Source of the DNA: Naegleria gruberi
Taxonomy: Eukaryota
Assembly (NCBI GenBank): GCA_000004985.1
Contig: GG738891.1
DNA length: 64,000 nt
Direction: 5' to 3' (one strand)
Under the pieces are notes generated by a model. The model had not been told where the DNA came from. It saw nothing but the letters and a program-made list of their open reading frames with translations, and did no database searches. Shown here in pieces: positions 1,804 through 61,077 of this stretch (positions are counted from its first letter, which is position 1; the number at the start of each line of letters is the position of its first letter). The position numbers were made by a program, and so were the translations under genes.

Positions 1804-3306
1804 ATGAAACCGAAATGTTGTATTGGAAATGTTTCGAATACTACAACTTGGACGTTTAGTTCAATAATGAAGAGCATTCCGATAGAAGTTATACAACACA
1901 ATATTTTCCCCTATATGGAACATGCTGATTTGAAATATTGTAGATTGGTTTGTAAACTGTGGGACGAATTTTGCCGAAACACATCAACATTTATTCTATT
2001 GAATGTTCAATTAAAATTTGATGAAGAACTGTTTCATTTAAACAGAAAAGGATTCGGTTTCCACGATTGGACAATCAACAAATTGAAAATTGTAAATAAT
2101 AATATTGACTATGAATATATTTATCAGATTTTAAGAGAAATTAAACGAAAGAGCGATTTGGAACATTTAATTTTGGATAAAAGAATTGATTTCAATCAGC
2201 CAATGAGTCAACTGGTATTAAATTTCCCAAATTTGAAACATTTTTCTATGAACAGCACAAATCTCACCAATCATGCTGGTTTGATTCGAATAGTTTCCAA
2301 TCTAGAAAGTTTAAAACTAAGAGTAATGAATTTGGAAAAGGACTTTCTTCTAAACTTGACCAATAATTTTGGATCCAATTTGGTAAAACTCAAAATTGGA
2401 GCAAGTTTTATTGGAAATGAACATTTATCATGTTTGACAAGCTGTAAACAAGCAAGAAATTTGAAATGTTTAGAAATTGTTTCAAGGAGACATGAAAAAT
2501 TTAACATTGAGGCTAATTTTAGTAATTTTAAGGAAGTGGAAGAGCTGAGTTTGGAATTTGGTGATGCCAATGGCGAAGCTTGTTTGAATGAAATTGTAAA
2601 GATTGAGAATTTGAGAGTTTTATCCTTATCGAGGATGAATCTGGGTGATATTTCTAAACATTTTGAAAAACTGAAGAGATTAGAAAGTCTTTCACTTCAT
2701 AATTGTAATTTTAAAGGATTGAATCAAGTTTACAAATTGCAGAGATTGAAATGTTTGAGTATTAAGGGAGGCACACTGGATGAGCAGGATGTTGTGGGAA
2801 TTTCACAATTGGAGTTGACTAAATTGGCTTTGGATCGTTGTGGAATCTCTGCAGATTTGATTTGTAAACATTCAAGAATGAATTCTTTGAGGGAACTTTC
2901 TCTAACAGGAATTCCGCTCACTGAGGAAGCAATTTCAATAATAGGCAGAGAATTTACCCAATTGAGAACACTCTCCATTAGTTCAATATCAATGGAAAAG
3001 GAAAAACTTCAAAGATTGTTAAGAAATGATTTGTTTAGCTCTCTAAGAAATCTCTCCCTCATATCTTGCAATCTCAATGATGATCATTTGGAAACAATCT
3101 TGGACACAACAAGTATTCTTTCCAGATTATCCAATCTCAATATTGATTTGAATGATTTTTCAGAGAATTCCCTCAAATCTTTGCAAAATCAAAATGCTGC
3201 CTCAATGACAACCATTTCTACCCGATCTAGAAAGTCCAGTTTCAGCAATTCTGATCGACCTACCTCTCCCAAAAGAAGAGAAAAACAAGGATGTCTATTC
3301 CAATAA
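1804..3306 (+). CDS. F-box/LRR-repeat protein (FBXL/AMN1-like), 500 aa.
   Basis: Real ATG at 1804 after an A-run. N-terminal F-box-like segment (IPIEVIQHNIFPYMEHADLKYCRLVCKLW). Many Cys-containing leucine-rich repeats follow (LxxLxLxxCxxI pattern). Confidence 0.6.
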   Translation: MKPKCCIGNVSNTTTWTFSSIMKSIPIEVIQHNIFPYMEHADLKYCRLVCKLWDEFCRNTSTFILLNVQLKFDEELFHLNRKGFGFHDWTINKLKIVNNNIDYEYIYQILREIKRKSDLEHLILDKRIDFNQPMSQLVLNFPNLKHFSMNSTNLTNHAGLIRIVSNLESLKLRVMNLEKDFLLNLTNNFGSNLVKLKIGASFIGNEHLSCLTSCKQARNLKCLEIVSRRHEKFNIEANFSNFKEVEELSLEFGDANGEACLNEIVKIENLRVLSLSRMNLGDISKHFEKLKRLESLSLHNCNFKGLNQVYKLQRLKCLSIKGGTLDEQDVVGISQLELTKLALDRCGISADLICKHSRMNSLRELSLTGIPLTEEAISIIGREFTQLRTLSISSISMEKEKLQRLLRNDLFSSLRNLSLISCNLNDDHLETILDTTSILSRLSNLNIDLNDFSENSLKSLQNQNAASMTTISTRSRKSSFSNSDRPTSPKRREKQGCLFQ

Positions 3307-3370
3307 ATCAACCAACTCGAAATCCAATTTTAATTCTCATCCAACTCAATTAAAGTACATTTATTTACAA

Positions 3371-5029
3371 TTATTCCTCTTCCTCATCCACTACACATGC
3401 ATCATCGCTTTCATATCCACTTGTTGATTTTCTTGGCATACGATTACCAATAGTGCTCTGGAAACGAGGAGCATTTGGATTTGGGAGTGGTCTCCTAGAA
3501 TCACGAACAACAGCTCTCTTTCTAACTGGTATTTTGATTTTCCTCACTGTTTGTCCTTCATTGTCAACTTCTGCTGTTTGTTGTTGATTCACTCCTTCTA
3601 CTGTATTTGCTGTTGGTTGTTGACTCATTTCCTCATCACTATTCGATTTTACATCTTCCGTAGTATCGTATTGTTGTGGAGATTCTTGACGTTGATCAAC
3701 AACTGCTTGTCTTTGTTTTGGTGAAATATCCATAACTTCCATCACTGGAGGTTCTGTTAGATAAGTTTGTTTCGAATTATTCATCTCCAAAGGATTCAAC
3801 AAAACAGGTGGTTGATTAAACGAGGTTTGTGGAGAAGTAGGAGTTGGCAATGCTTTCAAATACCCACTATGTGTCTTTATGCCATTGTGTGGTGTTGTAC
3901 TAATTTGTGGAGGTGGTGCCTGTTTCTTCACTGGTTTATCCCAAGTTGTCGTGCCAGATTGTGCATGATGATAATAGTACTGATTGCTTCCGTAATCGTA
4001 GTAAGCTACCCAACCCTCTTCCAATTGTTCTTCCTGTTGTTGTTGTTGTGTTGTACTAGTAGTTGTTGTTGTAGTTGTTTGTGTGTTGGAAACAGTTGCA
4101 GTTGTTGAGGCAGTTGTTGAAGAAGAAGACGAATTATTGGAAGTGTTTGATGAGGATATTGAGGATGCTGATACTGATGATGATGATGATGTACTGCTGC
4201 TATTATTTGATGATTCATCATCTCCGAATATAGAATGTGCTTCAGCAATCAGGGTTGTCATTAAATTACTAGAATATTTGGAATCCTGGAGAATTTCCAT
4301 GTGACTTTGAGGAAGATCTGATTTTAACAAGTTAGGAGCAAAAACAATGGCCAAATTACTTGGCGACATTTTGTTAATACTTGAATTTGCAGCAACTTTC
4401 TTCAAGAATAAACATAAATTCTTTAAAATTGTAAAGTTTGTGGGTGGAAGAAACTTGATTACTTTTTGAATCATGACCAATCTTTGTTCTTCATCAGGAA
4501 TTCTCTGAATATTTGTGAATTTCATGAATAATTTTCATTTGAATTATATTTTCGAAAGTCAAATGATTCGAATAAGATCTAAAAACAAGTCTAAATAACA
4601 TACCTCAGCTGCCAAAAACATTCCATACTGTTCATATGTCAATAAAGGATCCATCAATTCTCTCAAATACAATTTCAGTAAACTACTCGCCAAGTGAATT
4701 TCATATTTCTCATACGGAACATCAAATTTAATATTTTGCTCTAATTGTTGAATGACTTCATCTTCATCTGATTTTTTAGGTGAAATTCTAAAGATACCTT
4801 CAATCTTTAGTCCATTTTCGTCTAGATAGGACATGGCTTTTAATACGAAAGGAGGTAAATCATTTGGATCGAGTGGAAGTTTCTTTGCAAAAACTTTGGA
4901 ATTTGCAAACTTTTCATTGGTTGGGAATTTTTGTGAACCTGGTGAGTTAGCAGCAACTGGTGATGATGGTGAGTTGGAATTGGTTGGTGGAGATGTCGAT
5001 TTCTTGTTATTCTTTTTAAAGATTTTCAT
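3371..5029 (-). CDS. RhoGAP-domain protein with a C-terminal WW domain. Two exons: 5029..4604 and 4504..3371, with a 99-nt GTATGT..CAG intron.
   Basis: Exon 1 carries GIFRISPKK and HLASSLLKLYLRELMDPLLTYEQY, the RhoGAP arginine-finger region. Exon 2 carries LCLFLKKV, NKMSPSNLAIVFAPNLL and the WW motif GWVAYYDYGSNQYYYHHAQSGTTTWDKP. The track start at 5092 is GTG, so I took the first ATG at 5029. Poly-T, Q and S tracts are present. Confidence 0.6.
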
Positions 5030-5672
5030 CCCTTCTTCTTTGTTTTTATACGAAAGTAAACTAATGCTATTAGAAATATGATGAACACACACTATTGTAT
5101 GGTCAATATGAAGATGTTGAATGGAAGATGATGACGAAGGCTTTGTTGCTAATCCGAAAGTCCCAAATGATACTGTTGTGTTTTTGTGCTATTTTTTTTT
5201 ATGCTTGTCTGAACATTCATTGGACATTTGACGTGTGAGCGGGTCAGCCAACAGAAACTTGATTCCTAAAAACCCGTAAGTCTGAGGATTCGTGAGACTC
5301 GAGATTAATATTGGCAAAACGAATCCACATATTTCATTGTAATCAAATGCCAAATGCCAAACTGTCGAGACAATAAAGAATATAATCAAGCAAAAACAAG
5401 AGAAGATGTAAAAAGAGACAAGATATAAATTTCTTCATTGTGAAAAACATCAAATATTGCAAACGAACATGAAAACAGCAAGTAACACTATTTTCTAAAT
5501 TTATTCTTATTGAGGCAAGCTTTGATAGCATGAATTTTATTTCCTTTTGGGGATTGTTGTAAAATTAAAAGGAACAGGAAGTTTGGTAGAATGTCATGAA
5601 ATGCTTGCCGAATCTATTCGAATCAATTTTATTATTAATAATTCGAAATTAGGATCTTTTTTGTCGTGTCTG

Positions 5673-6350
5673 TTAAAACAACTTTCGCACAGATTTAATA
5701 ACCCAAAACGAAACTACACTTCCCACCAATACATTAATCAATGAGTTTACAATTATTGTAAAGGCATTCATCAAGACAATTTCAATTTTTTCAATGAAAA
5801 TTGGAATTATAATTTGAGAGATTGAATCTCCTAAAACTTCACTAATTGTTTTTCCCAATAATTTGCTCGCAATTTTCAGCTCAAAATCTTGTAACAATTT
5901 TAAAGAGCTAACGTTTACAAATTGTAATGGAAGTGAAGAGTTTGATAAATGTGGAATTGTAAAATAATCAAATTTCATAGAGATGGAAACATGTTCGAGT
6001 GATATTTTACCTTGATCCCAAATAAAATTCTTTCCTTTTTGGTTAATTCTTTGAATTTTGTAATCAAATTCCAAATTTGTTAATTTAAAGTGATTTAAAT
6101 TTTTCAAATCCAAAATAATAGTTGTATTTTCCACAGAGAAGAGTAAATTAGAATTGGAAAGTACTTGATTCAATAGTGAATATTTCAATTCGATGGATTT
6201 TTCAAATTTAATTGAAGAGAGAAAGTAAGATGAGAAACTTTCCGAAATGGCAGTTGAAGTTTTTGAGAGGAAGGTTGTATGTTCCAAGCCTGATGAATTT
6301 TCCAATAGAAAAAAACAAGCAAGCAACATTAGCAAAAACACGTGTTTCAT
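5673..6350 (-). CDS. Secreted hypothetical protein, 225 aa, with an N-terminal signal peptide.
   Basis: ATG at 6350 after an A9 run. Hydrophobic N-terminus MKHVFLLMLLACFFLL. No recognisable catalytic motif. A lipid-binding (BPI/takeout-like) fold is only a guess. Confidence 0.35.
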   Translation of the reverse strand: MKHVFLLMLLACFFLLENSSGLEHTTFLSKTSTAISESFSSYFLSSIKFEKSIELKYSLLNQVLSNSNLLFSVENTTIILDLKNLNHFKLTNLEFDYKIQRINQKGKNFIWDQGKISLEHVSISMKFDYFTIPHLSNSSLPLQFVNVSSLKLLQDFELKIASKLLGKTISEVLGDSISQIIIPIFIEKIEIVLMNAFTIIVNSLINVLVGSVVSFWVIKSVRKLF

Positions 6351-6978: not shown

Positions 6979-9273
6979 TTAATAAAATGGTTCCCCTCCA
7001 TTATAAACGTCCAAATATTCGATTCCCTCGAACTGTCTAAATCTGAAGTAATGAGCACCTGCAACTGATTGAATTAGGGCAGGATCCATCTCACTTGAAA
7101 CTATTGAGGCATCAGGAATCATTTCTGATGTTACCCTTTCAACAATCTCTTTCAGTTTTGGAATGTTAAAAGTACCTCCGGAAAGGATAACATGCTTAAT
7201 CTTTGGTACTCTTCCATATGGCGAAGGAATCATTCCCTCTGTGATGGATTCTCTTAGTAACTTCTCAAAGTTTGCAAATTCGTTTTCACATAGAGTGTAA
7301 AATTCATCCCTTGTAACTGTAACAGAAGATCCATTTGAAAGTTCTACGATTGTGGAATTATTGATAGAAAGGGAACCCTTTACCTTTTCACATTGCTTAA
7401 GATCGATTGAGGAGCTGTGCTTTTCTTCCAAATGCTTCAATAAAATGAAACTGAAATCCTTTCCATTACAGCATTCCAAAAACTTTTCAAATATAAGATG
7501 ACTGTAGTAGTATTGAGAAACCTCACTGATATTGACTACTGGCTTACTACTTGACCAATTAACCACTAGACAATCACTGCCCATAATTGATTGGATGAAT
7601 GCATAAGGTATAATTTCTCTTCCATCCTCACAACATTGCAAGACTGACAATCCACAAGCTTTAGCAGATTCTACAACTAGATATTTATCCTCTGTTGGGA
7701 CTAGTAATTGTACAATTTTGGTTGAGAAGTATTTCACATTACCATCAAGATTGATCCGATCACTTGCATAGCTTGTCTCCATGTGTTGTTTGAATTCTCT
7801 GAATAATTCCTTCATTCTTTCACTGTTCGAATAAATATTTTCATCATTCGTTTGAATAACTTTTGCTGTTACTCCAACTGAATTACTAATTGAAATTGAA
7901 GCTTTCCATCGAGTTCTTCCACAATCAATTGACCAAGGAGCATGATTAAATTTACATCTGGAAATGATATTGTCTCTAATAGCTTGATCTCTTAAAGTAG
8001 TAATTGCCCATGAAATAACAGGTTGAATTCCATCCAATTCAGGATTGTAATCAACTCCCATAAATCCAGAAATGTAATGAAACTCTTTCCACTTTTGATG
8101 ATTCAACACCTCGACACTTGTTGCCGTAATTGGATTAGGGAAGCATCCAATTTCAAAAGCCTCTCTCCATCTGAAAACTTTTGCAAGTTTCTCAACTTCA
8201 GACTCTCCAGTTTCTTCAAACAAGTAGCCCTGAGAGAAATCATCAGTATATGGTTCATTTTCAGCAAATTTAGAATCCATCTCGATAAATTTCTGTAAAT
8301 GGTATGAAACTCTGTTCTCTTTATCATATGGGAAGAAGTAATTGATCCATCCAGAAATGAAATCAAAGCCACTGCTAGAATCAAAGAGAGCAATACCATT
8401 CCAAAATGTTTTCAACTCTTCAGTGAGAGTTTCTTCTTGGGCTGTTTTGATAATCCTATCAAGAATGAGTGTCAAAACCTTTCTCCACCAAGCCATATCA
8501 TATTCGTCAAGGAGTTTGAGCTTCTCTCTCATTCCCAACCAGTCATCCATAGTTCCCAAAATTGTAACACTTGGAAGACCACATAAGAAATCATTCTTAT
8601 ACGAATAAAAATCCTTAAAAGCTTCCATCAACAACATTTTCGAGGCAACTTTCTCAACTTGGGTAGAAGTTGAAAAGTTGTGATCTATAAAGTCCATCAA
8701 TTTGATTTTTCTCTCATCTCCCTTATGGGATGAAACATCATTTACAATTGCCTGATGAATTTCATTCACAACTCCCTCCCAATTAATCTCAGCACTCACT
8801 GGATCAATATATTGAGGCATAGCAACAACAATATCCATCTTGTTTTGCTTTTCTTCAGCATTGCCAATCAATTCAGGTCTCAAAGCCAAATGCTTTACCA
8901 ATCCCTGTGTAATCATCATCCAAATGTGATCAGGACTCACAATCAATGGATAATGTTCACTGTAAGCAGTACAATAACAAGCAACAACAGGATGAGGTCT
9001 CACCAATAGATTCTTCAATGCATAGACATTATCGGGTGAGTGTATGACACTGTAACGGGATCGAATTAAATCCTGATCAACTTTATCTCCCTTCTCAATG
9101 GTATTAGTAAATAATTGATTTAATAAAACTCTTTCAGAAGGCTGACTGTAGAGTTTGCCAATTTCATAGGGTTTGGCTTCTTCTTGTTCATCCTCATCAA
9201 TCGGATGCTTCTTCTTTGGAGTCCATGATGAAGCATAGAAGGGAGTAAAATCCCTCTTACAAAGAACCTTCAT
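6979..9273 (-). CDS. Fusion protein. About 440 aa of an uncharacterised domain sit upstream of an Hsp70-like actin-fold ATPase domain. There is no Hsp70 substrate-binding domain.
   Basis: The C-terminal half aligns by eye to Hsp70 NBD blocks. SIDCGRTRWKASI matches the IDLGTT phosphate-1 block. LVVESAKACGLSVLQCCED matches ATKDAGVIAGLNVLRIINE. HVILSGGTFNIPKLKE matches IVLVGGSTRIPKVQ. DPALIQSVAGAHYF matches DEAVAYGAAVQAAIL. The phosphate-2 DLGGGTFD block is degenerate. The track start at 9342 is TTG and the first ATG is at 9273. An upstream exon was not excluded. Confidence 0.5.
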   Translation of the reverse strand: MKVLCKRDFTPFYASSWTPKKKHPIDEDEQEEAKPYEIGKLYSQPSERVLLNQLFTNTIEKGDKVDQDLIRSRYSVIHSPDNVYALKNLLVRPHPVVACYCTAYSEHYPLIVSPDHIWMMITQGLVKHLALRPELIGNAEEKQNKMDIVVAMPQYIDPVSAEINWEGVVNEIHQAIVNDVSSHKGDERKIKLMDFIDHNFSTSTQVEKVASKMLLMEAFKDFYSYKNDFLCGLPSVTILGTMDDWLGMREKLKLLDEYDMAWWRKVLTLILDRIIKTAQEETLTEELKTFWNGIALFDSSSGFDFISGWINYFFPYDKENRVSYHLQKFIEMDSKFAENEPYTDDFSQGYLFEETGESEVEKLAKVFRWREAFEIGCFPNPITATSVEVLNHQKWKEFHYISGFMGVDYNPELDGIQPVISWAITTLRDQAIRDNIISRCKFNHAPWSIDCGRTRWKASISISNSVGVTAKVIQTNDENIYSNSERMKELFREFKQHMETSYASDRINLDGNVKYFSTKIVQLLVPTEDKYLVVESAKACGLSVLQCCEDGREIIPYAFIQSIMGSDCLVVNWSSSKPVVNISEVSQYYYSHLIFEKFLECCNGKDFSFILLKHLEEKHSSSIDLKQCEKVKGSLSINNSTIVELSNGSSVTVTRDEFYTLCENEFANFEKLLRESITEGMIPSPYGRVPKIKHVILSGGTFNIPKLKEIVERVTSEMIPDASIVSSEMDPALIQSVAGAHYFRFRQFEGIEYLDVYNGGEPFY

Positions 9274-9442
9274 GTTGCGCAATTTTTTTGGAATTGTTCC
9301 ATCTTGTTCCTTAACAACAATATCTTTGATATCTGCTTCCAAAATATTTGTGCTTTCCCTTGTAAGGTGTTTTGTACAGTCCGCAGAGCAAAGATTGAGA
9401 AATTACAAAGGATTTGAAAATCATAAAATATATCTTACACGT

Positions 9443-11299
9443 TTATAACTTAGGGGTAGTGCTATTCTTTCTTACAGTAATTTCCTCATTTAGGTTTTCT
9501 TGTATGCATGCTAAAATCTTAGATTTGTTTTCAATGGCATAAAATTGTGACATTAAGTGAATTTGTTGAATTGGAGAATAGATTCTTATATTAATTCTTG
9601 CTTGAACTAGATCAAACCAATTAATGGAAGGGGGTGGAGCTAGAATTCCTGTAGTATATTCAGCAAGTGATTTCTCATCAATACTCCAATTATGTCTATA
9701 AATTTCTTTCCATATAACATCAGACTTGGCAGATTCGTACCAATGTCTACAAACAGAGAAACATGTCAATAAATCAGGTATATCCAAAAAGAGGAATATA
9801 TACACTAGGGAATCTGTAGTAATACGTCTATTGAGTTCACCATTATTCTTCTTTGATCCTTGCTTAATTGTAAGTTTAAATCCTTCAATGCATTGCATTA
9901 AATAGTCAGATGAAATATATATACAATTATCAGAATTATTTGAGAAGGTTTTCTGAATATTTTGTAAACTTAATACTTGAGTGTCTGATCCTACTGGAAG
10001 TGTGACAATCTTTCTATGTTTGGGTTTGCTTTGAATGACAACAGGTTTTTCTTCTTCTGGCACATACTCATCATCGTCAGCTTTTCTCTTTCTTTTACCT
10101 TTTCCAGTTCCAACAATTGTTAGTTCAGATTCCTCATCCATCATCTGATCTGCATCATCTGTACTTGATTGAGGTGCACTTGGAAGTGGTTTAGTTCTTG
10201 GTCTACCTCTTCCTCTCTTCTTTTCCACTTGTGGTGGTGATGGAGGTGGTAGTTCAACACTTGATGAGGCAGAAGCTACAATTGTTTGTACAGTTGCTTC
10301 CAAAGGAGGTGCTGGTTTTTTCTTGTTGGAAGAACCTTTTGGACGACCTCTACTCCTCTTTCCTTGTTTTTCAGGTGTTGAAACATTAGTAGATGTTGTT
10401 GTGGCAGCTGCTTCCAATGATGTTTGTGTGTTTGTCAATTGTGAAGAGGTTGCAGATTCCTCAGTGCCAGTAGTACTACTACTAGAAGATGATGGTTTGC
10501 TTTCATCAGTTGCTTTAAGAGATTCGGAAACAAGATGGCCTGCATCATTGTACTTGATAAAAGGTCTCACTCCCTGTTGGGCTCCTGTACCAGGATCTAA
10601 AAAGCCTACATTAGTGGAATATTTAATACCACAAGCATTACATAATGTTCCTGTTCCAAGAGGTCCCTTTCTCCAAGTAGGAGTATCCATACATCCACAA
10701 TTAGAGCAAACAGCCTTCGCTTGAATTCTCTTCACTTTCAATGAAGAAACAATAGAATCTCTTTCACCTTCTGCCAATTGTACAATTTCACCCTTCTTGC
10801 CAGGCTTCTTTTTCTTTTGGTGTTCTTCTGTGGTTGCTGTTGGTACTGTTGTGGATGCATCCTTGTCCCAAATTAATTGTAGTGTGGTTGGTGCCTCTGT
10901 ATTGATTGTTGTTGGTGGTAAATTGTTACAAGGAAGGGAGGAAGAGGCTGGATCTTGTCTGCCAACTTGTCCTCCTGAGGCTGAAAATACATTGGGAATA
11001 ACAGATGATCCATTCACAACACTACTAATAGAACCCTTCTCGGCACTAGAGGTTAATTGATCCAGAATACTACCGAGTGTTATTTCATTGGTGTTATCTG
11101 AGGTCATCCCGACAATCCCTGGCGTGTTAGTATCAACAGATGAAGCAGTTAGGGGTGTACTAGACTCTTGAACCTCTAGTTTGACTGTAGAAGATGACAA
11201 CACGTCTACAGCTGCTGGACTAACAGTGTTAGCCTCCTGAGTTGTTGAAGGAGGATGATTCAGCTGTGTTTCTTCTTGGTTTTCGGAGGCGAGGCTCAT
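9443..11299 (-). CDS. GATA-type zinc-finger protein with two AT-hooks and a C-terminal F-box-like motif.
   Basis: The GATA zinc finger reads CSNCGCMDTPTWRKGPLGTGTLCNACG. The AT-hooks are KRSRGRPKGS and KRGRGRPRTKP. The C-terminus reads DIPDLLTCFSVCRHWYESAKSDVIWKEIYRHNW, which is F-box-like. The track start is GTG. A real ATG (MSLASENQ) sits at 11299 after an A-run. Confidence 0.6.
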   Translation of the reverse strand: MSLASENQEETQLNHPPSTTQEANTVSPAAVDVLSSSTVKLEVQESSTPLTASSVDTNTPGIVGMTSDNTNEITLGSILDQLTSSAEKGSISSVVNGSSVIPNVFSASGGQVGRQDPASSSLPCNNLPPTTINTEAPTTLQLIWDKDASTTVPTATTEEHQKKKKPGKKGEIVQLAEGERDSIVSSLKVKRIQAKAVCSNCGCMDTPTWRKGPLGTGTLCNACGIKYSTNVGFLDPGTGAQQGVRPFIKYNDAGHLVSESLKATDESKPSSSSSSTTGTEESATSSQLTNTQTSLEAAATTTSTNVSTPEKQGKRSRGRPKGSSNKKKPAPPLEATVQTIVASASSSVELPPPSPPQVEKKRGRGRPRTKPLPSAPQSSTDDADQMMDEESELTIVGTGKGKRKRKADDDEYVPEEEKPVVIQSKPKHRKIVTLPVGSDTQVLSLQNIQKTFSNNSDNCIYISSDYLMQCIEGFKLTIKQGSKKNNGELNRRITTDSLVYIFLFLDIPDLLTCFSVCRHWYESAKSDVIWKEIYRHNWSIDEKSLAEYTTGILAPPPSINWFDLVQARINIRIYSPIQQIHLMSQFYAIENKSKILACIQENLNEEITVRKNSTTPKL

Positions 11300-11562
11300 T
11301 TTTTTAATTAAAAATAATAAAATATTTGTGATGATGATAGAAAATTGTTCATCAAAGGACAACCTGTTGTGATCTTTGTTGTAACTTGAATGGAACACAA
11401 TTTTAGATTAATGGATTGTGTTTATTTTGTGGTGGTTGTACTGTGTCGGATGATCGTATTGCAAGACTTTCATTATCTAACTTTTGTCATTTTCAAATAT
11501 GTTGATTATTATTGCAATGTTGAACACAATTTGGATGAGAACAAGGATTAGATTCTTTCTTG

Positions 11563-12831
11563 ATGATGGAAAGAGAAAGAAGTGAACTTGCTATTACAAT
11601 AAAGTTTAAAAAAATGACTTCGGCTCTGCAGCCAGGGAAAATGCTCAGCAACAATAACCAAACATCAAGTTGTTGCCCACCATCTTCTCAGTTGCAGCAT
11701 CAGCAAGGAGGTACAATGACTATCGGAAGAATGTCTTCAGTGGCCAATCATCATAAACGTGGTGGAGCTAATAGCAATGGAAAGAGAGGACTGAACATGA
11801 CTACAACAAGAATAAATCAACAGAAAGAAATTAATGATGGAGAGGGTATGAGAGATGATTCATCTCTCATTAATCAGAAGCTTCAAAATAGTAGTAATGA
11901 TAATAATAATTCGGAAAGGGAGAAGGAAACAATTGTTAATTCAGATCGTTTGAGATTATTGCTTTTTAATCATAAAAGCAGAAATACAATTTATAATAAT
12001 TCTCTAAATAAGCAACAAGTAACTGTTAAGAACTTGGTCCATGTCGGTGTTGAACAACAGCCAGCAAAAAAATATAATCATTCTCAATCAGAAAAATCAG
12101 ACAATTGTTTTGATGAAGGAAATCAAGAGAAAATTAATAGTACTGTGGAAGAAATGAATTCTATTATAAAACCGAAATGGTTAAAATCTATTGTGGATAA
12201 TCAGTGCGATTTGGGTTTTGTGAAGGAAAATGGAAATTGTACAAATATGAATCATTACCCAAAGATAAGGGAAAATAATTCTTTTATGGATACCAAATCA
12301 AAGAAAGTTTCAAAAGAGTCAATTAATGTGAAAAAGAAGAATGGTTCCAATAGGAAAATTGAAAGGACAGAAAAATCCTTTAATAATGTAATGTTGGAGT
12401 TATTCAAAGAAAGGTCAACCGAAATACAACCTCCACAAGATATTCAAAGTAATGACACAATGTTTACAAAGCTAACCAAGTCGTGGAATAGATTCTTATT
12501 CTGGTGGATTAAATGGAAGAGGGATTTCACCACCAACACCATTCACCAATTTTTGAGTTCATATGATCCAGTGATGAGGACATTTGAGTGTGTTTTCATA
12601 TTTTTCGAAACTTTTAGAATACCCTATCCTATTCGATATGCTGTTCATCGAATCAGACACTTTTTATATTTGATATTTCAATTTGTGTGGACATCCACAT
12701 TTCTCTTTGAGGAAAATTCAGAATTTGAACGTGAGCTTTTATCTCACAACAATAGAAGAAACGACTCTCAAATCTACAATGCCGATCCAAGATATTATTA
12801 CGATGATGTAAATTACTATTCACAAAATTAA
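11563..12831 (+). CDS. Hypothetical Asn/Ser-rich protein with a hydrophobic Trp/Phe-rich C-terminal region.
   Basis: Long ORF with ATG ATG at 11563. Poly-N and poly-S low complexity. C-terminal segment WNRFLFWWIKWKRD...FIFFETFRIPYPIRY. No known domain recognised. Confidence 0.35.
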   Translation: MMERERSELAITIKFKKMTSALQPGKMLSNNNQTSSCCPPSSQLQHQQGGTMTIGRMSSVANHHKRGGANSNGKRGLNMTTTRINQQKEINDGEGMRDDSSLINQKLQNSSNDNNNSEREKETIVNSDRLRLLLFNHKSRNTIYNNSLNKQQVTVKNLVHVGVEQQPAKKYNHSQSEKSDNCFDEGNQEKINSTVEEMNSIIKPKWLKSIVDNQCDLGFVKENGNCTNMNHYPKIRENNSFMDTKSKKVSKESINVKKKNGSNRKIERTEKSFNNVMLELFKERSTEIQPPQDIQSNDTMFTKLTKSWNRFLFWWIKWKRDFTTNTIHQFLSSYDPVMRTFECVFIFFETFRIPYPIRYAVHRIRHFLYLIFQFVWTSTFLFEENSEFERELLSHNNRRNDSQIYNADPRYYYDDVNYYSQN

Positions 12832-13144
12832 TTTAAGATTATAAGATATAATAAGAAAATTGGTAGTATTAATATGAATTAGTTTATGCTCAACGTTAAT
12901 AGCTAAAGTAATAGAAAATATATTGAGAATAGGGAAGAACGCCTTTTATTAACGTTAAATATTTAAAAAAAATATTTTAAGGAAACTCAAAGCCTTAGAA
13001 AATTTCTAACCGACGAAAATTTTCATCCCTCAATCAAGCGTTCTATCATTGTGATTATTATATATATTGCGTGTATATTTATACTGTTGGAAATTGTAGG
13101 ACCAATCCGTTGATGATCTAATATTCACTCACAATTCGAGGAAA

Positions 13145-22382: not shown

Positions 22383-23482
22383 TTAACAGTATCTAATGTC
22401 ATCCTCATCTTTTTCATAGACAAGTACTTCATAAATCAACGTTTTCAACTTGGGAGCTAGTGCTAATTTAATTTTCTCAATGTGATCTTCTTTAAAAATT
22501 GTTCCATCCAAGTCCAATGTTGTCAAGCTCTTCATGAGACATATAACTTGTAAATCCAATTCTGGATCACTGCCAATCTGTGAACATCCCCTCAATGACA
22601 AACAGCTTAATTGACTCAATTTGGCGAGTTGTACTAAAGAATCATGAGTTATTGATCCATTACATCCCAGGTTTAGTGAGGTCAATTTTGGCAGCTTTTC
22701 ACAAATTACTTTAACTTCCGAATCTCCAATCCAGGTACTTCCAAGGTCAAGGCTTGTGAGATTTCTCAATTTTGAGCAGACAAATGAAAGCAAATCCTTG
22801 TTCATATTTGATAGTCCAATATCAAGAGATTGTAAATCTGTTAAAGCGCAAATATTTCTTATATCACCATGGTTGATTTCAGTACGACACAATCCAAGAG
22901 ATTTCAGTTGTTTCATTGAGCTGATTATTGTTGTGCCAACATTTCCAACTTTGGTATGTCTCATGTTTAATTCAGTTAAATTTTCCAAGTTTTGTATGTA
23001 TTTCAAGTTCCTTGGATTTATACTACAAACTTCCAATGTTAAGGAGTGTAAAAGTTTCATATTTTGGCAGAAACTCATTCCCTTTTCATCTATTGAAGCT
23101 CCATACAGAGACAAACTTGTTAATTTATCCTTCAAACAATCACTCAATATCTTAAAATAACTACTATCAACAGTAACAAGCCAATTACTTCCAATTCCAT
23201 CATAATGATAGGCAAATGATGTGATATTTGCATGTTGCTGCAATCAAGAGAAAGAATTTCTTGAAATGGTTCAAAATAGAACGATTTCACCTTCAAATGA
23301 ATAGGAAATTGTCTAATTGCCACCAAATACCACTGTTTTGATACGAGAGAATACCTCTCCATCACTTCTTTTCTATCCAAAAATTTTAATATTTCATAAC
23401 AAATATCATCGGGTATGATCGGTGCCTCACTACTTTCAAACTTCTTTACAGGAGGAGAGGCAGATAACCCTTGCTTGTCCAT
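22383..23482 (-). CDS. F-box/LRR-repeat protein with two exons. Exons are 23482..23291 and 23237..22383.
   Basis: Exon 1 carries the F-box IPDDICYEILKFLDRKEVMERYSLVSKQWYLVA. A 53-nt intron from GTGAAA to TTGCAG joins in frame to Cys-containing LRRs (LTSLDLGSTWIGDSEV, LSLRGCSQIGSD). Confidence 0.65.
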
Positions 23483-24943: not shown

Positions 24944-27763
24944 CTAAAAGCTTTCAAAACTTGCCTTCTGATTTGACTTTCTAATTCTTCTTCCCAAATC
25001 CTTGTCTAATGGAACGTTACTGGCACGAATATTCTTAAGATTGGGTGATCTTGCAACAAGTGTCTTGATACTCTTTTCATTAAGACTAGTTCCTCTAATG
25101 TCAACAATTGCCAGATAGGGAAGTGTTGATTTTTTGGATTGGAATTTGAGTTGTGTCAGTTGAGTACATGAAGATACATTCATCTTGATGAGAGAATTAG
25201 ATCCTTCAGGTATTATTATTGATTTGACATTTCCACTATTCATGCTTAATACCCTCATCGATGGAAGAATATTAATTGAAGGAATTTCTCCATCAAATGT
25301 TAAACTTTCCAAATTTGATAACTCACTCAAAACCTCTTGAAATTTCGGTCCAACCTTTCCCTCATGAATTGCAATCCTTTTCAGATTTTTAAAGAGTGGA
25401 ATACTTTGTCTAAAATTCACAATGTTACAACTCCTTAATGTTAGAGAGTGGACGCTAGAGAAGGCGTTTTCCTTTGCCTCATTTTGTACGACCAATTCCT
25501 TAATTTCACAATTGGTTGCATTGATATCTTTCAATAAATTAGATTTCAGATAAACGTAGGAGGTATAGGTAATGTTCAAGCTTTCAAGAAGTGGTGCAAA
25601 TATTGAGAATTTCACATCGGTTGCCTGCTTTAGTAAAATCTCCAATCTTCTCAAATTCTTGTGGTCTATATTGAAAACGAATGAGTCATTGGAAAATCTA
25701 GATGACAAACCAAACTCCTCTAAATTATTGATATTCATCAATAAACGTGACATTCTCACCGATGAAATGTGTTTCATATTGCTTTCAATGTGAAAGTGTA
25801 GCTTCTTCAATGCCTTCATGTTTTCATATTGATTTGACAGATAGGTCCACAGAGGTGACTCAAAATCTCCATAATAGAACAGTGATTCGAATGTATGCAT
25901 CATTGGTTCTGGTGTCATACTTCTCAATCCATTACAATTGGAAAGTTTGATGTGGCGAATTTGTGGATAAATCTCACGATCTCCCAATTCAAAACTGAAT
26001 TCTCTTAGACTTTTTACATGTTTCAGGGAGAGTTTCTCGAGAACTATTCCATTATTTTCAATTAAATGAAGTCCCACACAAGCAATTGATACCTTTTCGA
26101 GTTGAGGCATGGAAGAGATTTTCAAAGTTCTCAGCTGTACAAAATTATTCACGTATGGATCTTTGAGAATATGAATCGATCGAATATTAAAGCAATCTCT
26201 AATTCTAAACTCAGTCAAAGAGTCAGAACATTTTCCAAGCAGTGCATTCAAGTGTCCATTGAACATGAAAGAATTTGCAATTCGTAAATTTTGTAATTTT
26301 TTCAATTCACTCAGCACCATGAGCTCTCCAAAATTTTGAAGTATTAACTTTTCTATATTTGGTAAATCCAACTGTACAAGACTCTCTCTACAGCAAACTG
26401 GATAGTTAATGAAACGTAGCTGTTTCAGAGAGTTGCTTTTGAGAATTACTTTCCCATCTACTTCAGTGTTAGAATCTGGTCGAATTATGGAAACATTGAG
26501 GTATTGTAAATTTGGAAGATTATTGAGAATTTTCTGAATATCTCTTGCTTCCTTTGTGCGAAATGCTTCAATAACCATCTTGGTTAAATTATTTCTTGGA
26601 ATGGTTGGTAAATTGAATGGCTGTATGCAATTCAAACCCCCAATCAAAATTTCTTCCATTTGTGGCAAAACTTCTTCTCTTTCAATTTGGAAAAATGTAT
26701 TCACAAAATCTTCTATTGTAATATTTTGACATCCAAAACTCTTCAATGATGTCCCTAGTTGATTACTGATCGCCAATAATTCATTCTTACTAAACTCATA
26801 ACATGTTATGTTTCCCCTCTTGTTAAATCCAAAATGTAAAGATTCCAAACTATTTAAACTCGATATAAACTCATTAAACCCCTGATTGGCAATAAATGAT
26901 AAATTTTGATTGGCATCATTTGTGAAAAATGAAATTTTCAATCTTTTAACATTGGTCTGAGCTAGAAATTCCTTAATAATCCTCAATTCATTCGAAACAT
27001 CCTTAAATTTAATATTCAATAATTGTAAATCACACAACTCGGTAAAAGACTCTGCCAAATATTGAATATCATTCCTTTCCAATGAAATATACATGTACTT
27101 TTCAAAATCCAAAACCAATCTCGTCACATTCACTAAAAATGGGAAATGTTCCAAATAAATTGAAAAGAAAGACCTCAAGGTTGTGAAATTACTAATAGGA
27201 AGAGAAATATTTGACAAGATTGCCATTCCCAATGTTGAACTCGTCGAAGAATCAAACACCAAAGCATTTGAAATTGTTGGAAGGAAATTCATTTCATCCA
27301 ATCCTTGCCAAAACTCCTTTCTCATCAAGTATTCACTCCTCAAATAGGAACACGTTTGAGAGAATTTCAAAATTGAATTTAAATCCAAATAACTGACAAT
27401 AATTCTCATCTGATAGAGGGGAATATATTGGAAAAAGTACTTTTCGGAATTGTTAACAAGATTGGGTCTTCTTCTTTTGGCTTCAATTTCTGTAATGTCC
27501 ACTTCTTCAACCTCGTAGTCATCATCATCTCCTACTACTACTAGTTGATGATTAATTTCATTATTTTCCTCTTGATGATTATTGGTTTTACTATTTTCTT
27601 GGAATTTTCGTTTTAGTGGATTTTCATTATTTTCATCATCATCATCGGAAATGACCACTACATCATCATCACTACTACTTTCCGAAGAGGAAGATGAATC
27701 TTCATCCTCCTCCTCATCACTAAAATCCAAGTCAATTTCGTTGCTTACTTGACTTTTAGTCAT
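24944..27763 (-). CDS. Large F-box/LRR-repeat protein, 939 aa, with an acidic Ser/Asp-rich N-terminus.
   Basis: ATG at 27763. An F-box-like segment (QYIPLYQMRIIVSYLDLNSILKFSQTCSYLRSEY) is followed by more than 20 irregular leucine-rich repeats. Confidence 0.55.
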   Translation of the reverse strand: MTKSQVSNEIDLDFSDEEEDEDSSSSSESSSDDDVVVISDDDDENNENPLKRKFQENSKTNNHQEENNEINHQLVVVGDDDDYEVEEVDITEIEAKRRRPNLVNNSEKYFFQYIPLYQMRIIVSYLDLNSILKFSQTCSYLRSEYLMRKEFWQGLDEMNFLPTISNALVFDSSTSSTLGMAILSNISLPISNFTTLRSFFSIYLEHFPFLVNVTRLVLDFEKYMYISLERNDIQYLAESFTELCDLQLLNIKFKDVSNELRIIKEFLAQTNVKRLKISFFTNDANQNLSFIANQGFNEFISSLNSLESLHFGFNKRGNITCYEFSKNELLAISNQLGTSLKSFGCQNITIEDFVNTFFQIEREEVLPQMEEILIGGLNCIQPFNLPTIPRNNLTKMVIEAFRTKEARDIQKILNNLPNLQYLNVSIIRPDSNTEVDGKVILKSNSLKQLRFINYPVCCRESLVQLDLPNIEKLILQNFGELMVLSELKKLQNLRIANSFMFNGHLNALLGKCSDSLTEFRIRDCFNIRSIHILKDPYVNNFVQLRTLKISSMPQLEKVSIACVGLHLIENNGIVLEKLSLKHVKSLREFSFELGDREIYPQIRHIKLSNCNGLRSMTPEPMMHTFESLFYYGDFESPLWTYLSNQYENMKALKKLHFHIESNMKHISSVRMSRLLMNINNLEEFGLSSRFSNDSFVFNIDHKNLRRLEILLKQATDVKFSIFAPLLESLNITYTSYVYLKSNLLKDINATNCEIKELVVQNEAKENAFSSVHSLTLRSCNIVNFRQSIPLFKNLKRIAIHEGKVGPKFQEVLSELSNLESLTFDGEIPSINILPSMRVLSMNSGNVKSIIIPEGSNSLIKMNVSSCTQLTQLKFQSKKSTLPYLAIVDIRGTSLNEKSIKTLVARSPNLKNIRASNVPLDKDLGRRIRKSNQKASFESF

Positions 27764-39662: not shown

Positions 39663-41558
39663 TCACTTGTATGAAATTTCTTTCATATCAAAGCTAGTAT
39701 TGATAAAGTCAATGATGTTCTTCTGAGTGTTTGTAATCAAGTGAGATTTACCTTGCATTGTGGTAATTCTAGATCTAAAGTCTCGTTCATCGAGTGATAA
39801 GTTCAGAATGGCATCTAAATTTAACAATAAATCAGAAGTATAGTCTTCCAAACGAGATAGATGGTCATTAAATAAATAACCATAGGTCTCTAACATTAAA
39901 AATTCCTTCTCTGACTTTTTGGTTGTGTTAAATTTGATTTTGAGTGTGTCAAATCCGAAATGAATGTAAGCAAATGCATAACATGAACGTAAGAGTCTTC
40001 TACATCTGTAGATATTTCTGAAAGAGTCGAGAAGGAATTTGAGATCCTTGGTTGGTCTAATATGGAAAAACTTTTCCTTATAATTTGCAATTTCGAGTCG
40101 ATAGTGACCTGTTCGTTTATGTTCCTCCAACCATTGATTGTGTCTTCTGTATAATGAGACGAATCTTCCATAAAGTTCTTCTGCTGCAGAGAATAATTTA
40201 ATATCTTCAGATGTTTTCACTGTCTTTGGAGCACAAACTGTTTCAGCATGAACGTAGGATGTATACTCTGAACCACACTATCGATGAAGAATCAAAACTA
40301 AACTCTCTTTGATGATGATACTTACAATATAACAAAATTCATGTCCACAAACACAATTAATGTGATTACATCCAACATCCTTAAATATAATTCTTTTACA
40401 CTTGTTACATTGTTGACTTGTTCTGTGAATAAACTCTTTCGATGCAAAATCATCCTGAGCAATAGTCAAGAATCTCTTATACACATCACATGAGCATGGG
40501 AAGTGAGGATCCTTATCACATTGGAAGCAACACTCTTCACCACACTTGCATTGAGCAATGTACAAACTTTCATCACATAGTTTCTTGATTGCATAGGGAC
40601 CATCACAGCCTGGATTAGGACACCACTTTAGTCTGTAACTTGAACCCACATATGAATCAATCTTTCTCTGGAAAAACTTTTCAAATAATTCCTTATCTTC
40701 CTTTGGATCCAATTGTGACAACATAAATGTCTCAGTAAGTGTAGTCTTACATGAATAGTCCATACACTTTACAGTATTATCATTCATTGCTGTTTTGACA
40801 TGATTGACAATATATTCCTTCCAACAAGTTCTACAGAAAACATGTCCACACATATCATATGCGTACAATGGAACATCATCTGAATAACAAGCATCACATG
40901 TGCCAATTGTTGAAGATGAACATGATTTTTTGAAATCTGGATTGAGTCCACACTTGGTTAATAAAGCATCCAATCCCAAATCACCATAATCTCTAATTAA
41001 TTTCTCTGTATTCCACTGATATTCCTTCAACATACATTCCACAAATACTTTACTCTTCAATTGAAGAGTTTCAGCTGCTGTCTTTACTTCTGCCTCTTGA
41101 TCTTGCAATAATTCCTTTGTATCAAGTACCTTGTACAATTCTCCTTTTGTTTTAAATTCCCTCGTCTTGACAACTTCTACAAAGGCAGATTCGTCCACTT
41201 GTTCACCAATATCATCATCAAAGTAATGTTCTTCTCCTACTATATCATCTTCATTGTATTCAATTTCCTCCTCCTCTTCATAATTTTCCTCTTCATGATC
41301 ATGATGATCACAACCACATTCCGGCGTCTCGTGCTCTTCTTCCTTCTCTTCATCATCAATTGAAGCTTCCAATAAATCACCATTCTCCTCACACATCTGA
41401 ATGACAGTCTCTATGGCAAGAGCCTCATCTAAATTACAATCCAAAACCACTTGATGGAGTGTTTGGAGGCTAATACTGGGAAAGAGTTCGTTCAATGAGA
41501 GAACGATTGCTTTTATTTTTTCCTTTCGTTTGTCCTTCTCGGATTGTTGTTGACTCAT
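39663..41558 (-). CDS. RBR (RING-between-RING) E3 ubiquitin ligase of the Ariadne type, with an acidic N-terminus. Exons are 41558..40326 and 40277..39663.
   Basis: RING1 reads CDACYSDDVPLYAYDMCGHVFCRTCW. The IBR reads WCPNPGCDGPYAI...CKCGEECCFQC. RING2 reads CNKCKRIIFKDVGCNHINCVCGHEFCYIC and joins across a 48-nt GTAAGT..GATAG intron. A C-terminal Ariadne-like domain follows. Confidence 0.7.
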
Positions 41559-59208: not shown

Positions 59209-61077
59209 TTAGTATTCAAAGCTTTGTACCAGGTTTTCTTCGTAAAGATCTTCCTCTTCTTCGAAACCATCAAACATTCTTCGAGAGTTAGATTCCTCAA
59301 TGTATTCATCCATTCCCACATTTACTGTACAAACTCTGCTGGGTATTGATTGTGAGACACTACTACTCTTATTGACATATTCCTCATCTTCTTCAGTTAA
59401 GCTGGCTAACATTGTGTTTCTTTCAATAAAACTGTCATGCTTTGATCTTTTTGGCTCCATATGGTCTTCATCCAACAGCACAATATCATCATCTTCAAAT
59501 AGTTGAGGATTATATCTCTTTTCTTCCTTAAATTTATAACTATTAATCGTCTTGATGCTCTTTCTTGGTGGGTATTGTAAGGAAAATTCTTCATTTGCAA
59601 TTTCTTCTTCCAGCTCATTGGATCCTTCTTCCTCTTCAATTTCCTCGTCACTAAAGTCTGTTTTTCCAAACAAGTCACTATTTGTATCCTCTTCATCTTC
59701 GTCTTCGTTATCCATTCCTCTAAATAACGTGTTCTTAGATGGTGTTGATCTAGAATCTTGTAACTTTACAGAGGTCAAACTCTTTTCCAGATTTGAGATG
59801 TTGTCATATGATTTTTGAATTGACTTTTTAGAGAAAGCTTCTGGAGGAGGCTGATAAAGAGGAGAATCGTCCAATTCATCGCCAATATCTTCCTCTGAAA
59901 TAATAATCATGTCATCATGAGAAGCAGAAGCTTGATAATGTTCTGGATGGTACTCTTCCTTTGGAGGTTTTTTTAAAATTCTTAATTCCTCTATTGAATA
60001 GTGTTGTGTGTCTTCTTCCAAAATATCGTCTTGTTCCTCTCTGTTTTCATACCTAGATATTTGAGAATCATTTGGGATATTGCTATGAGAAATTAATAGT
60101 ACATGATTTTGTTGCTTATTGGAGCTTCCTAGTTTGGATTGAACTTGACTCTTGTTGTTTTGTTTTGCAGTTTTGGTAATTGGTTTGGCTCCTTGCATGA
60201 CAAGAGCTTTGGAATTGGTTGGACTGGTGGTGTTTGGAGTTGTTATCATTCTTGGTAGAGCTGTTTGTGGTTTAGGTTCAGTTAGGAATGATGATTGGTC
60301 CAGTATCGATTCAGACATGTCAATATTGGTTGTGTTAGGTCTGTTTGAAGTTTTTGCCATTCTCCTTCCGAAGGCAATATGTGGTTTATCTTTTGATGTA
60401 TTCAATGGTTTCTCAATGGCGAGTGGTTTCTTCTTCAGAGCTAACTTTTCTTCTTCTGTCAGATATGAAGATGCATCTATCATGCATACGTTATTATCTC
60501 CCATATGTGTAAATGCCAATTTCTTCGGTATGAGTGCCTCCGTGACAGGATTCTGTCTTAGGGAGTATATTTTCCTTAACGTACAAGCTGGTCCAATACT
60601 AATCCTATCCATGCAATAGTACTCTTCCTTATCATTGAATGACATGGATGTCAGTTCTTGTAAATCAAAACATAAATTCATCCACTCTCCACTTTTTACA
60701 ACATCAGAAATTGGTATTTGCGTATGCAGTTGTGTCTTGGTAACAGTTTTAAAACTACTAGAGAAAATCAATCTCTTTTTGATTTGTTTTTTATCCCGAA
60801 TATGTATTTCTATTTGAAAAACTGATCCGATACAACATTGTAGTACTAAATATCGATGCATAATTTGTAGTGTTGATGTTGTCGATTTCGGAAGCTCAAT
60901 GTTCGTTGTATGAAAGGAACTTCCCTCAATACAAACAACAAACGATTTAACCTCTTTATCAAATTCTTTTTTTACCATCTTTGTATTCTTAATTGCAATA
61001 TTAGCAAGAGCACTCGATCCCTGAGTTGACAGCAATTCAATACTATCACCCGAACTTGAGGCAAGATTTGTCGACAT
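59209..61077 (-). CDS. CFAP20-domain (DUF667) containing protein, CFAP20DC-like, with a long acidic and Ser-rich C-terminal extension.
   Basis: The N-terminal about-190 aa align by eye with CFAP20: VVCIEGSSFHTTNIELPKSTTSTLQIMHRYLVLQ, KKRLIFSSSF, GEWMNLCFDLQELT and the C-terminal TLRKIYSLRQ against RIRRVYFSDR. ATG is at 61077. Confidence 0.55.
   Translation of the reverse strand: MSTNLASSSGDSIELLSTQGSSALANIAIKNTKMVKKEFDKEVKSFVVCIEGSSFHTTNIELPKSTTSTLQIMHRYLVLQCCIGSVFQIEIHIRDKKQIKKRLIFSSSFKTVTKTQLHTQIPISDVVKSGEWMNLCFDLQELTSMSFNDKEEYYCMDRISIGPACTLRKIYSLRQNPVTEALIPKKLAFTHMGDNNVCMIDASSYLTEEEKLALKKKPLAIEKPLNTSKDKPHIAFGRRMAKTSNRPNTTNIDMSESILDQSSFLTEPKPQTALPRMITTPNTTSPTNSKALVMQGAKPITKTAKQNNKSQVQSKLGSSNKQQNHVLLISHSNIPNDSQISRYENREEQDDILEEDTQHYSIEELRILKKPPKEEYHPEHYQASASHDDMIIISEEDIGDELDDSPLYQPPPEAFSKKSIQKSYDNISNLEKSLTSVKLQDSRSTPSKNTLFRGMDNEDEDEEDTNSDLFGKTDFSDEEIEEEEGSNELEEEIANEEFSLQYPPRKSIKTINSYKFKEEKRYNPQLFEDDDIVLLDEDHMEPKRSKHDSFIERNTMLASLTEEDEEYVNKSSSVSQSIPSRVCTVNVGMDEYIEESNSRRMFDGFEEEEDLYEENLVQSFEY

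Follow-up and report, generated by a model that had tools for sequence, protein, structure and literature searches.

Gene structure and module order

The 64,000-nucleotide stretch of Naegleria gruberi contig GG738891.1 analysed here (the window) is ordinary eukaryotic nuclear DNA, gene-dense and with few introns, and carries at 9443-11299 on the minus strand a gene that joins a GATA-type zinc finger and two AT-hooks to an F-box and a conserved C-terminal tail. This interval is filled by a single frame, open for 618 codons from the ATG at 11299 to the stop codon at 9443-9445, giving an intron-less coding sequence for a protein of 618 amino acids. The probability of 618 open codons arising by chance, computed from base composition (a stop being expected every 13-14 codons), is about 2e-21, and the plus-strand frames within the interval reach 133 amino acids at most and are unremarkable; G+C content across the window is 30-39%. 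The same protein, identical over its 618 residues, is encoded on two contigs of metagenome run ERR1078381, which match window positions 7326-12937 with 99.4% DNA identity, and its start (MSLASENQEE) lines up in the alignment with the starts of the Naegleria orthologs (MNVSEK...).

Reading from the N-terminus, the finger and its family-specific extension come first, followed by AT-hook 1, AT-hook 2, a block of RKRK with acidic residues after it, a pre-F-box segment, the F-box and, towards the C-terminus, the tail. The finger, the two RGRP hooks and the F-box had been read from the sequence in the original prediction, and all of them are found, the Pfam domains scoring above their cutoffs and the hook motifs being located in the frame. 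The existence of the gene and of its architecture is in very little doubt.

The predicted DNA-binding modules of the N-terminal part

The finger (residues 198-223; 10631-10708, minus strand, as for all features of this gene) is matched by the Pfam GATA profile PF00320 over residues 198-227 with 39.8 bits, compared with a gathering cutoff of 26.8. The CSNCGC...LCNACG motif spans residues 198-224 with the spacing CX2CX18CX2C, and a loop of 18 residues is typical of plant GATA factors. The top single-domain match in the PDB is Arabidopsis GATA18 (8j48_D; gapless, E value 6e-9), and further matches include animal GATA-1/3/4 and fungal AreA, the E values for GATA factors in the PDB ranging from 1e-9 to 1e-5. 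With the 18-residue-loop factors (Arabidopsis GATA18/HAN, PDB 8j48) the finger shares not only the cysteine spacing, but also the TPxWRxGPxGxxxLCNACG pattern, and its residues are mostly invariant among five aligned members of the family. Following the finger is an extension of the form GIKYST..LDPxTGA..G..F..D (residues 224-252; 10544-10630), in which L234, D235, T238, G239, G243, F247 and D252 are invariant in alignment A1. The protein differs from GATA factors in that this conserved, non-basic extension replaces their basic region, and in the addition of AT-hooks, F-box and tail.

The two AT-hooks, KRSRGRPKGS (residues 314-323; 10331-10360) and KKRGRGRPRTK (residues 360-370; 10190-10222), are supported by both motif and conservation. 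RGRP occurs twice in the 19,536 residues of window frames of at least 100 amino acids, both times in this protein, for which its own composition predicts 0.003 occurrences (P for two or more, about 4.5e-6). Hook 1 is kept as RGRPKGS in P0002, P0003 and P0004 (representatives of the protein clusters described below), with the related RGRPPGS in P0008; hook 2 is kept as KRGRGRP in the same three and appears as RKRGRPPKN in P0008. In the Naegleria orthologs and P0008 both hooks thus form conserved islands within an otherwise unalignable, low-complexity linker rich in Ser, Thr and Gln, which extends over about 230 residues and has the GATA finger and the hooks set in it. The Pfam AT_hook profile gives no match at E ≤ 10 in the 618-residue protein, as is expected for so short a motif. 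The K/R-flanked RGRP cores presumably bear a close resemblance to the hooks of human HMGA1, although the protein that contains them here is multidomain and much larger than the HMGA-type proteins.

Beyond the hooks lies a basic patch, GKGKRKRK (residues 399-406), followed by an acidic patch, DDDEYVPEEE (residues 408-417; 10049-10105 for both), and the resulting RKRK...D.DY.PEEE block is conserved in alignment A1. From its composition, GKGKRKRK is likely to be a nuclear localisation signal. Taken together, the finger and the hooks would be expected to bind DNA.

The F-box and a family-specific helical tail

The C-terminal motif noted previously (LTCFSVCRHWY...IWKEIY) falls inside residues 493-534 (ITTDSLVYIFLFLDIPDLLTCFSVCRHWYESAKSDVIWKEIY; 9698-9823) and is a genuine F-box, as had been proposed subject to profile searches. 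Pfam places the domain at residues 495-535, with 37.4 bits for F-box-like (PF12937; cutoff 24.3) and 22.5 bits for F-box (PF00646; cutoff 20.5), and the orthologs score 31-42 bits for F-box-like. A family profile searched against PDB sequences retrieves F-box proteins only (over profile positions 28-94; best match FBXW7, 7.9e-5), the F-boxes of KDM2A/B being among the matches. The AlphaFold model of the F-box (described below) overlays the SKP2 F-box to within 0.7-1.6 Å over 39-40 residues with 32-33% identity (Foldseek), and the VC(R/K)xW...(L/I)W motif is intact. Skp1 binding and assembly of a Skp1-Cul1-F-box (SCF) complex are therefore functions that this module may be predicted to have by homology. 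No Skp1 gene was found within the 64-kb window with an approximate human SKP1 query. N-terminal to the F-box is a conserved segment (residues 458-480, NCIYISSDYLMQCIEGFKLTIKQ; 9860-9928; alignments A1 and A2), which is kept only in the Naegleria-like clade and is absent from P0005 and the more distant members.

No leucine-rich repeat (LRR) is matched by Pfam in the 618-residue protein, which ends 84 residues past the F-box. Most of this remainder is occupied by a tail of about 73 residues (535-607; 9479-9697), defined by conservation and by the AlphaFold model, with the signature ..W..L.QAR......PIQQ.E.M.KFY.IEN.PKIL.CI. and conserved in all ten clusters of the family. The tail did not figure in the original prediction; it defines the family, and on the alignments it is both the most conserved and the most family-specific part of the protein. 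Searched in isolation, the tails of seven members yield no consistent match in Pfam up to an E value of 10, and the family profile finds no PDB sequence match for the tail beyond the F-box.

A model of the C-terminal module built on the five-sequence alignment A2 was discarded (predicted local distance difference test score, pLDDT, 50), and the 11-sequence alignment A3 was used. The resulting model of residues 480-618 is all-helical, with a mean pLDDT of 83.9, a predicted template modelling score (pTM) of 0.71 and eight helices; the first three constitute the F-box and five more continue into the tail, with helix 4 starting within the F-box segment. PDB fold matches of this model (Foldseek) are Skp1-bound F-box proteins only, and two KDM2B F-box/SKP1 structures (6bva_E and 5jh5_A) are among the sequence and fold matches. 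The tail resembles only the helical linkers and extensions of F-box proteins, and its place is that of their substrate-binding domains. Its conserved residues are mainly aromatic or hydrophobic, together with one invariant Arg and a near-invariant Glu, a pattern that fits a rigid domain. In the model the tail packs directly on the F-box and appears to form a compact unit unique to a small family of protist proteins.

A small and divergent protein family

A profile of the pre-F-box segment, F-box and tail, run against 1.84 billion representative proteins, recovers 10 clusters at E ≤ 1e-10, and everything weaker matches the F-box segment alone. Proteins of Naegleria fowleri, of N. lovaniensis and of Willaertia magna are among them; one of the nine clusters other than that of the window protein (P0010, from W. 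magna) is a fragment, and the remaining eight are full-length. A GATA-type finger is present in seven of these eight, being strong in P0005, P0007 and P0008, weak or degenerate in P0011 and P0012, and missing from P0009. Paired RGRP hooks occur in P0002, P0003, P0004 and P0008, and a single hook in P0012, whereas none of 140 generic F-box matches carries a GATA finger or an AT-hook. The recurrence of the fusion of GATA finger (usually with AT-hooks), F-box and tail argues for an old and maintained design rather than an accident of one genome. A pattern search of metagenome contigs with alignment A2 gave 388 pattern matches, none of which was confirmed.

A word-indexed protein search identified relatives with both Pfam domains: a JGI metagenome protein of 566 residues, N. 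lovaniensis C9374_009972 (752 residues), N. fowleri FDP41_006414 (750 residues) and a protein of 595 residues with two GATA fingers. Overall, the first three are 40-45% identical to the window protein, against 27% for the one with two fingers. In the C-terminal module, identity amounts to 53-60% with the Naegleria sequences and to 43% with the W. magna fragment KAL9646387, which marks the source as Naegleria-like but distinct from N. fowleri, N. lovaniensis and W. magna. The most distant members of the family share 24-33% identity.

Orthology with the N. fowleri gene is backed by gene structure and by common neighbours. The N. fowleri gene has 2253 nucleotides for 750 amino acids and is thus intron-less too. 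A RhoGAP gene directly downstream of it, and of its counterpart on the JGI contig, corresponds to window 3371-5092 (79-83% identity), from which two additional genes separate the GATA-F-box gene in the window. On the other side, 3.3 kb upstream in N. fowleri, a gene for a 958-residue protein is the ortholog of window 24944-27763 (35% identity over 855 residues, E value 2e-145). Between this gene and the N. fowleri GATA-F-box gene lies one for an OTU-domain protein (L006, 2882-3877, plus strand); the OTU domain defines a family of deubiquitinases.

Several further features of individual members were observed. The P0005/P0007 branch carries two GATA fingers, and the called N-terminus of P0007 (JGI 3300062347; L003, 4001-5665) begins within the conserved inter-finger segment SLGKMPL..GPKP..P.Y.GPNY, which suggests that this gene model is probably missing the first finger. 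On contig L004 a gene for a 337-residue GATA-finger protein (2856-3869, plus strand) lies immediately upstream of P0008 (SRR32315890; 4001-5809) on the same strand, and could be either a GATA gene in tandem with that of P0008 or an exon of the P0008 gene that was missed at its upstream end. A beta-tubulin gene adjoins P0011 (Logan SRR23962323); its closest metagenome tubulins are 93-95% identical, with 94% for Euglena gracilis and 93% for a protist transcriptome entry, and it is too conserved to place P0011 taxonomically.

The unusual character of the architecture, remarked on previously, is borne out by the ten clusters in 1.84 billion proteins. No paper on it came up in literature searches that combined GATA and F-box, with or without Naegleria or AT-hook, or that used the locus tags of the orthologs in N. 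fowleri and N. lovaniensis. The architecture is already on record, though uncharacterised, since public databases list the Naegleria orthologs under the names ‘hypothetical’ or ‘GATA-type domain-containing protein’, along with precomputed matches to the two Pfam domains.

Comparison with known F-box proteins

DNA-binding modules are already known from other F-box proteins; new here are the combination of a GATA finger with AT-hooks, and the tail. The closest likeness in design is to the animal proteins KDM2A/KDM2B (FBXL11/10) and FBXL19, in which an N-terminal zinc-finger DNA module is combined with a more C-terminal, SKP1-binding F-box, such that Skp1 is tethered to chromatin (PMC5997449); for the Naegleria protein this arrangement is read from the sequence. 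Compared with this group, whose DNA reader is a CxxC finger (recognising CpG), the reader here is a GATA finger with AT-hooks, and the LRRs that follow their F-box are replaced by a short, novel helical tail, without JmjC or PHD domains. Animals and a heterolobosean-type protist being unrelated lineages, the likeness is one of convergent design and not of membership.

Other comparisons are more remote. The plant gibberellin F-box protein SLY1/GID2 lacks a DNA-binding module; its identity to the tail is 13-14% with no detectable sequence similarity, and its GGF and LSL motifs are not seen here. Ctf13 (of yeast CBF3) and Fbh1 (an F-box DNA helicase) are F-box proteins that act on DNA with Skp1, and are not known to have any sequence or domain relation to the Naegleria protein beyond the F-box.

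A proposed DNA-tethered SCF receptor and its alternatives

Most likely, the gene product is a nuclear protein of three kinds of module: an N-terminal DNA anchor, an F-box and a helical tail. The mechanism tentatively favoured, with a likelihood somewhat short of even, is that of a DNA-tethered Skp1/SCF receptor, which is preferred because the layout is the one usual for SCF receptors, extended by a module for DNA targeting. Both functional ideas of the original prediction, a chromatin-tethered SCF and a self-degrading factor, are plausible. The finger and AT-hooks would anchor the protein at GATA-type or AT-rich sites, and the F-box would recruit Skp1 and, via Skp1, Cul1-Rbx1. The tail, in the position that a WD40, LRR or Kelch domain has in an ordinary SCF receptor, would recognise a chromatin-bound partner, leading to local ubiquitylation of that partner; both this receptor role and the substrate are postulated from sequence and position. 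The fuller version, in which finger and hooks form a hard-wired address that targets Skp1-Cul1 to specific sites, with a substrate-receptor tail of a new type, and which has been retained in diverged protists, is possible but doubtful.

The observations that weigh against a DNA-tethered receptor concern all three kinds of module. In the DNA anchor, the basic region of GATA factors is absent after the finger (the Pfam match stops at position 30 of the 36 in the profile), and the residues standing where a basic tail is usual, STNVGFLDPGTGAQQG, are non-basic and conserved in the family; the AT-hooks may make up for the absent basic tail. In the F-box, most members have lost the Leu-Pro dipeptide with which helix 1 begins, P0008 alone retaining it; the window protein has Ile-Thr in its place, and Naegleria Leu-Thr. 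In addition, the first 8 profile positions are absent from the Pfam alignment, the F-boxes of P0011 and P0012 do not reach the gathering cutoffs (18.7 and 18.8-19.6 bits, respectively) and the conserved residues are mainly of core type. The tail, finally, has no recognisable substrate-receptor domain.

This last point is shared with a serious, if rather unlikely, alternative, namely that the protein is a non-proteolytic Skp1 adaptor whose DNA-bound F-box/Skp1 and tail recruit another complex without cullin or ubiquitylation, on the model of FBXL19 with CDK-Mediator, KDM2B with PRC1.1 or Ctf13 with CBF3. Sequence does not separate such an adaptor from an SCF receptor, and most F-box proteins characterised with Skp1 assemble with Cul1, which counts against the adaptor. 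The presence of the KDM2B F-box/SKP1 structures among the matches speaks for it. So does FBXL19, whose F-box binds SKP1 and is required to recruit CDK-Mediator, with CUL1 not detected and the stability of Mediator unaffected (PMC5997449); it is the failure to detect CUL1 in a member of the closest work-alike group that makes this alternative a serious one.

The departures of the F-box listed above would also be accommodated if the C-terminal 125 residues were a fold derived from an F-box that no longer binds Skp1, and served as a helical domain for dimerisation or another contact. However, the Leu-Pro dipeptide is common but not obligatory in the F-box family, the window, Naegleria, P0005, P0007, P0008 and P0009 proteins all score above the F-box-like cutoff, and both the close overlay on SKP2 and the intact VC(R/K)xW...(L/I)W motif are difficult to reconcile with such a relic, which is accordingly considered improbable.

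Slightly less probable is a self-limiting GATA/AT-hook transcription factor (the self-degrading factor of the original prediction), in which the F-box mainly shortens the life of the protein through SCF autoubiquitylation. F-box proteins are commonly unstable through autoubiquitylation, and conservation is as strong in the DNA-binding modules as in the F-box; but this explanation leaves the conservation of the 73-residue tail unexplained, ordinary degrons would be far cheaper than an F-box with a folded domain, and Pfam recognises no activation or repression domain in the 618-residue protein.

Finally, an artefact in which adjacent GATA-factor and F-box genes are read as one, for which the low complexity and poor conservation of the middle ~230 residues might be cited, is rejected as extremely improbable, given a single frame of 618 codons without a stop in 33% G+C DNA (P about 2e-21), the conserved hooks and RKRK/acidic block within the linker, the same fused order in at least eight independent clusters including the intron-less N. 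fowleri gene, and the lack of a noteworthy alternative frame on the opposite strand. The possibility of a split into two genes had been raised with the original prediction; instead, the one frame recurs as the same protein on the metagenome contigs, and the domain order is the same in N. fowleri, in N. lovaniensis and in more distant relatives.

Few F-box proteins read DNA directly, the animal KDM2/FBXL19 proteins being the best known and their F-box being partly cullin-free. A DNA-tethered receptor in Naegleria would represent a second way, evolved independently of KDM2/FBXL19, of bringing Skp1/SCF to defined sites on DNA, and an unrecognised post-F-box domain would join the list of candidate substrate receptors. 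The fusion is conserved in both free-living and pathogenic amoebae (the ortholog in N. fowleri), and the gene is rare, conserved, compact, intron-less and testable. The degree of surprise is moderate, since protists often have F-box fusions and databases already flag both domains in the orthologs.

Neighbouring genes in the window

Three neighbouring genes had been described as F-box/LRR genes and taken as a sign of a lineage-specific expansion of F-box proteins. The description is defensible for two of them. Gene 1804-3306 encodes LRRs; its F-box-like match, at 23.0 bits, is slightly below the cutoff of 24.3, and a custom F-box hidden Markov model (HMM) finds it with 20.6 bits (E value 1.6e-5). 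Gene 22383-23482 (minus strand) has an F-box-like match of 25.1 bits, above the cutoff, in exon 1 and LRRs in exon 2, the exons being joined in frame by a 53-nucleotide GT..AG intron (23238-23290), one of the few visible in the window. The third, gene 24944-27763 (minus strand), does not fit the description: its F-box match is sub-threshold (12 bits, E value about 0.2, residues ~113-160) and absent with the custom HMM, and none of its Pfam LRR matches is significant (best 15 bits, E value 0.023). Its product has 939 residues with an acidic, Ser/Asp-rich N-terminus, and its N. fowleri counterpart (L006, 1-2695, minus strand) conserves the linkage to the GATA-F-box gene.

A local tandem expansion of F-box/LRR genes is rejected, and the proposed lineage-specific expansion is poorly supported: the three neighbours are not close paralogs, their pairwise BLAST matches having E values of 0.001 or worse and being confined to LRR regions, and the linkage of the 939-residue gene, already present in N. 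fowleri, is inherited and not the product of a recent local burst. Three F-box genes among the approximately 35-40 genes of the window may hint at a large genome-wide family, but the window alone is not enough to show an expansion.

Between the GATA-F-box and RhoGAP genes, window 6979-9342 (minus strand) encodes a 787-residue open reading frame (ORF) with a DUF4419 domain (230 bits) and a C-terminal Hsp70-like segment (22.8 bits, barely above the cutoff). Together with ORF 5673-6350 it has the appearance of a lineage-specific insertion, because the flanking GATA-F-box and RhoGAP genes adjoin in N. fowleri.

The remaining genes of the window include those for HEATR5/Laa1, a CFA20-domain protein, pantothenate kinase, GlmS, an RBR-type E3 ligase, a TFIID subunit and a RhoGAP-WW protein. 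The RBR-type E3 ligase, another ubiquitin-system gene, is a 426-residue ORF with an IBR domain at 40278-41558 (minus strand). At 59209-61077 (minus strand), a 622-residue ORF has the CFA20 (cilia/flagella-associated) domain in its first ~175 residues, followed by a long, unmatched C-terminal extension, and a gene of this type fits an amoeboflagellate source.

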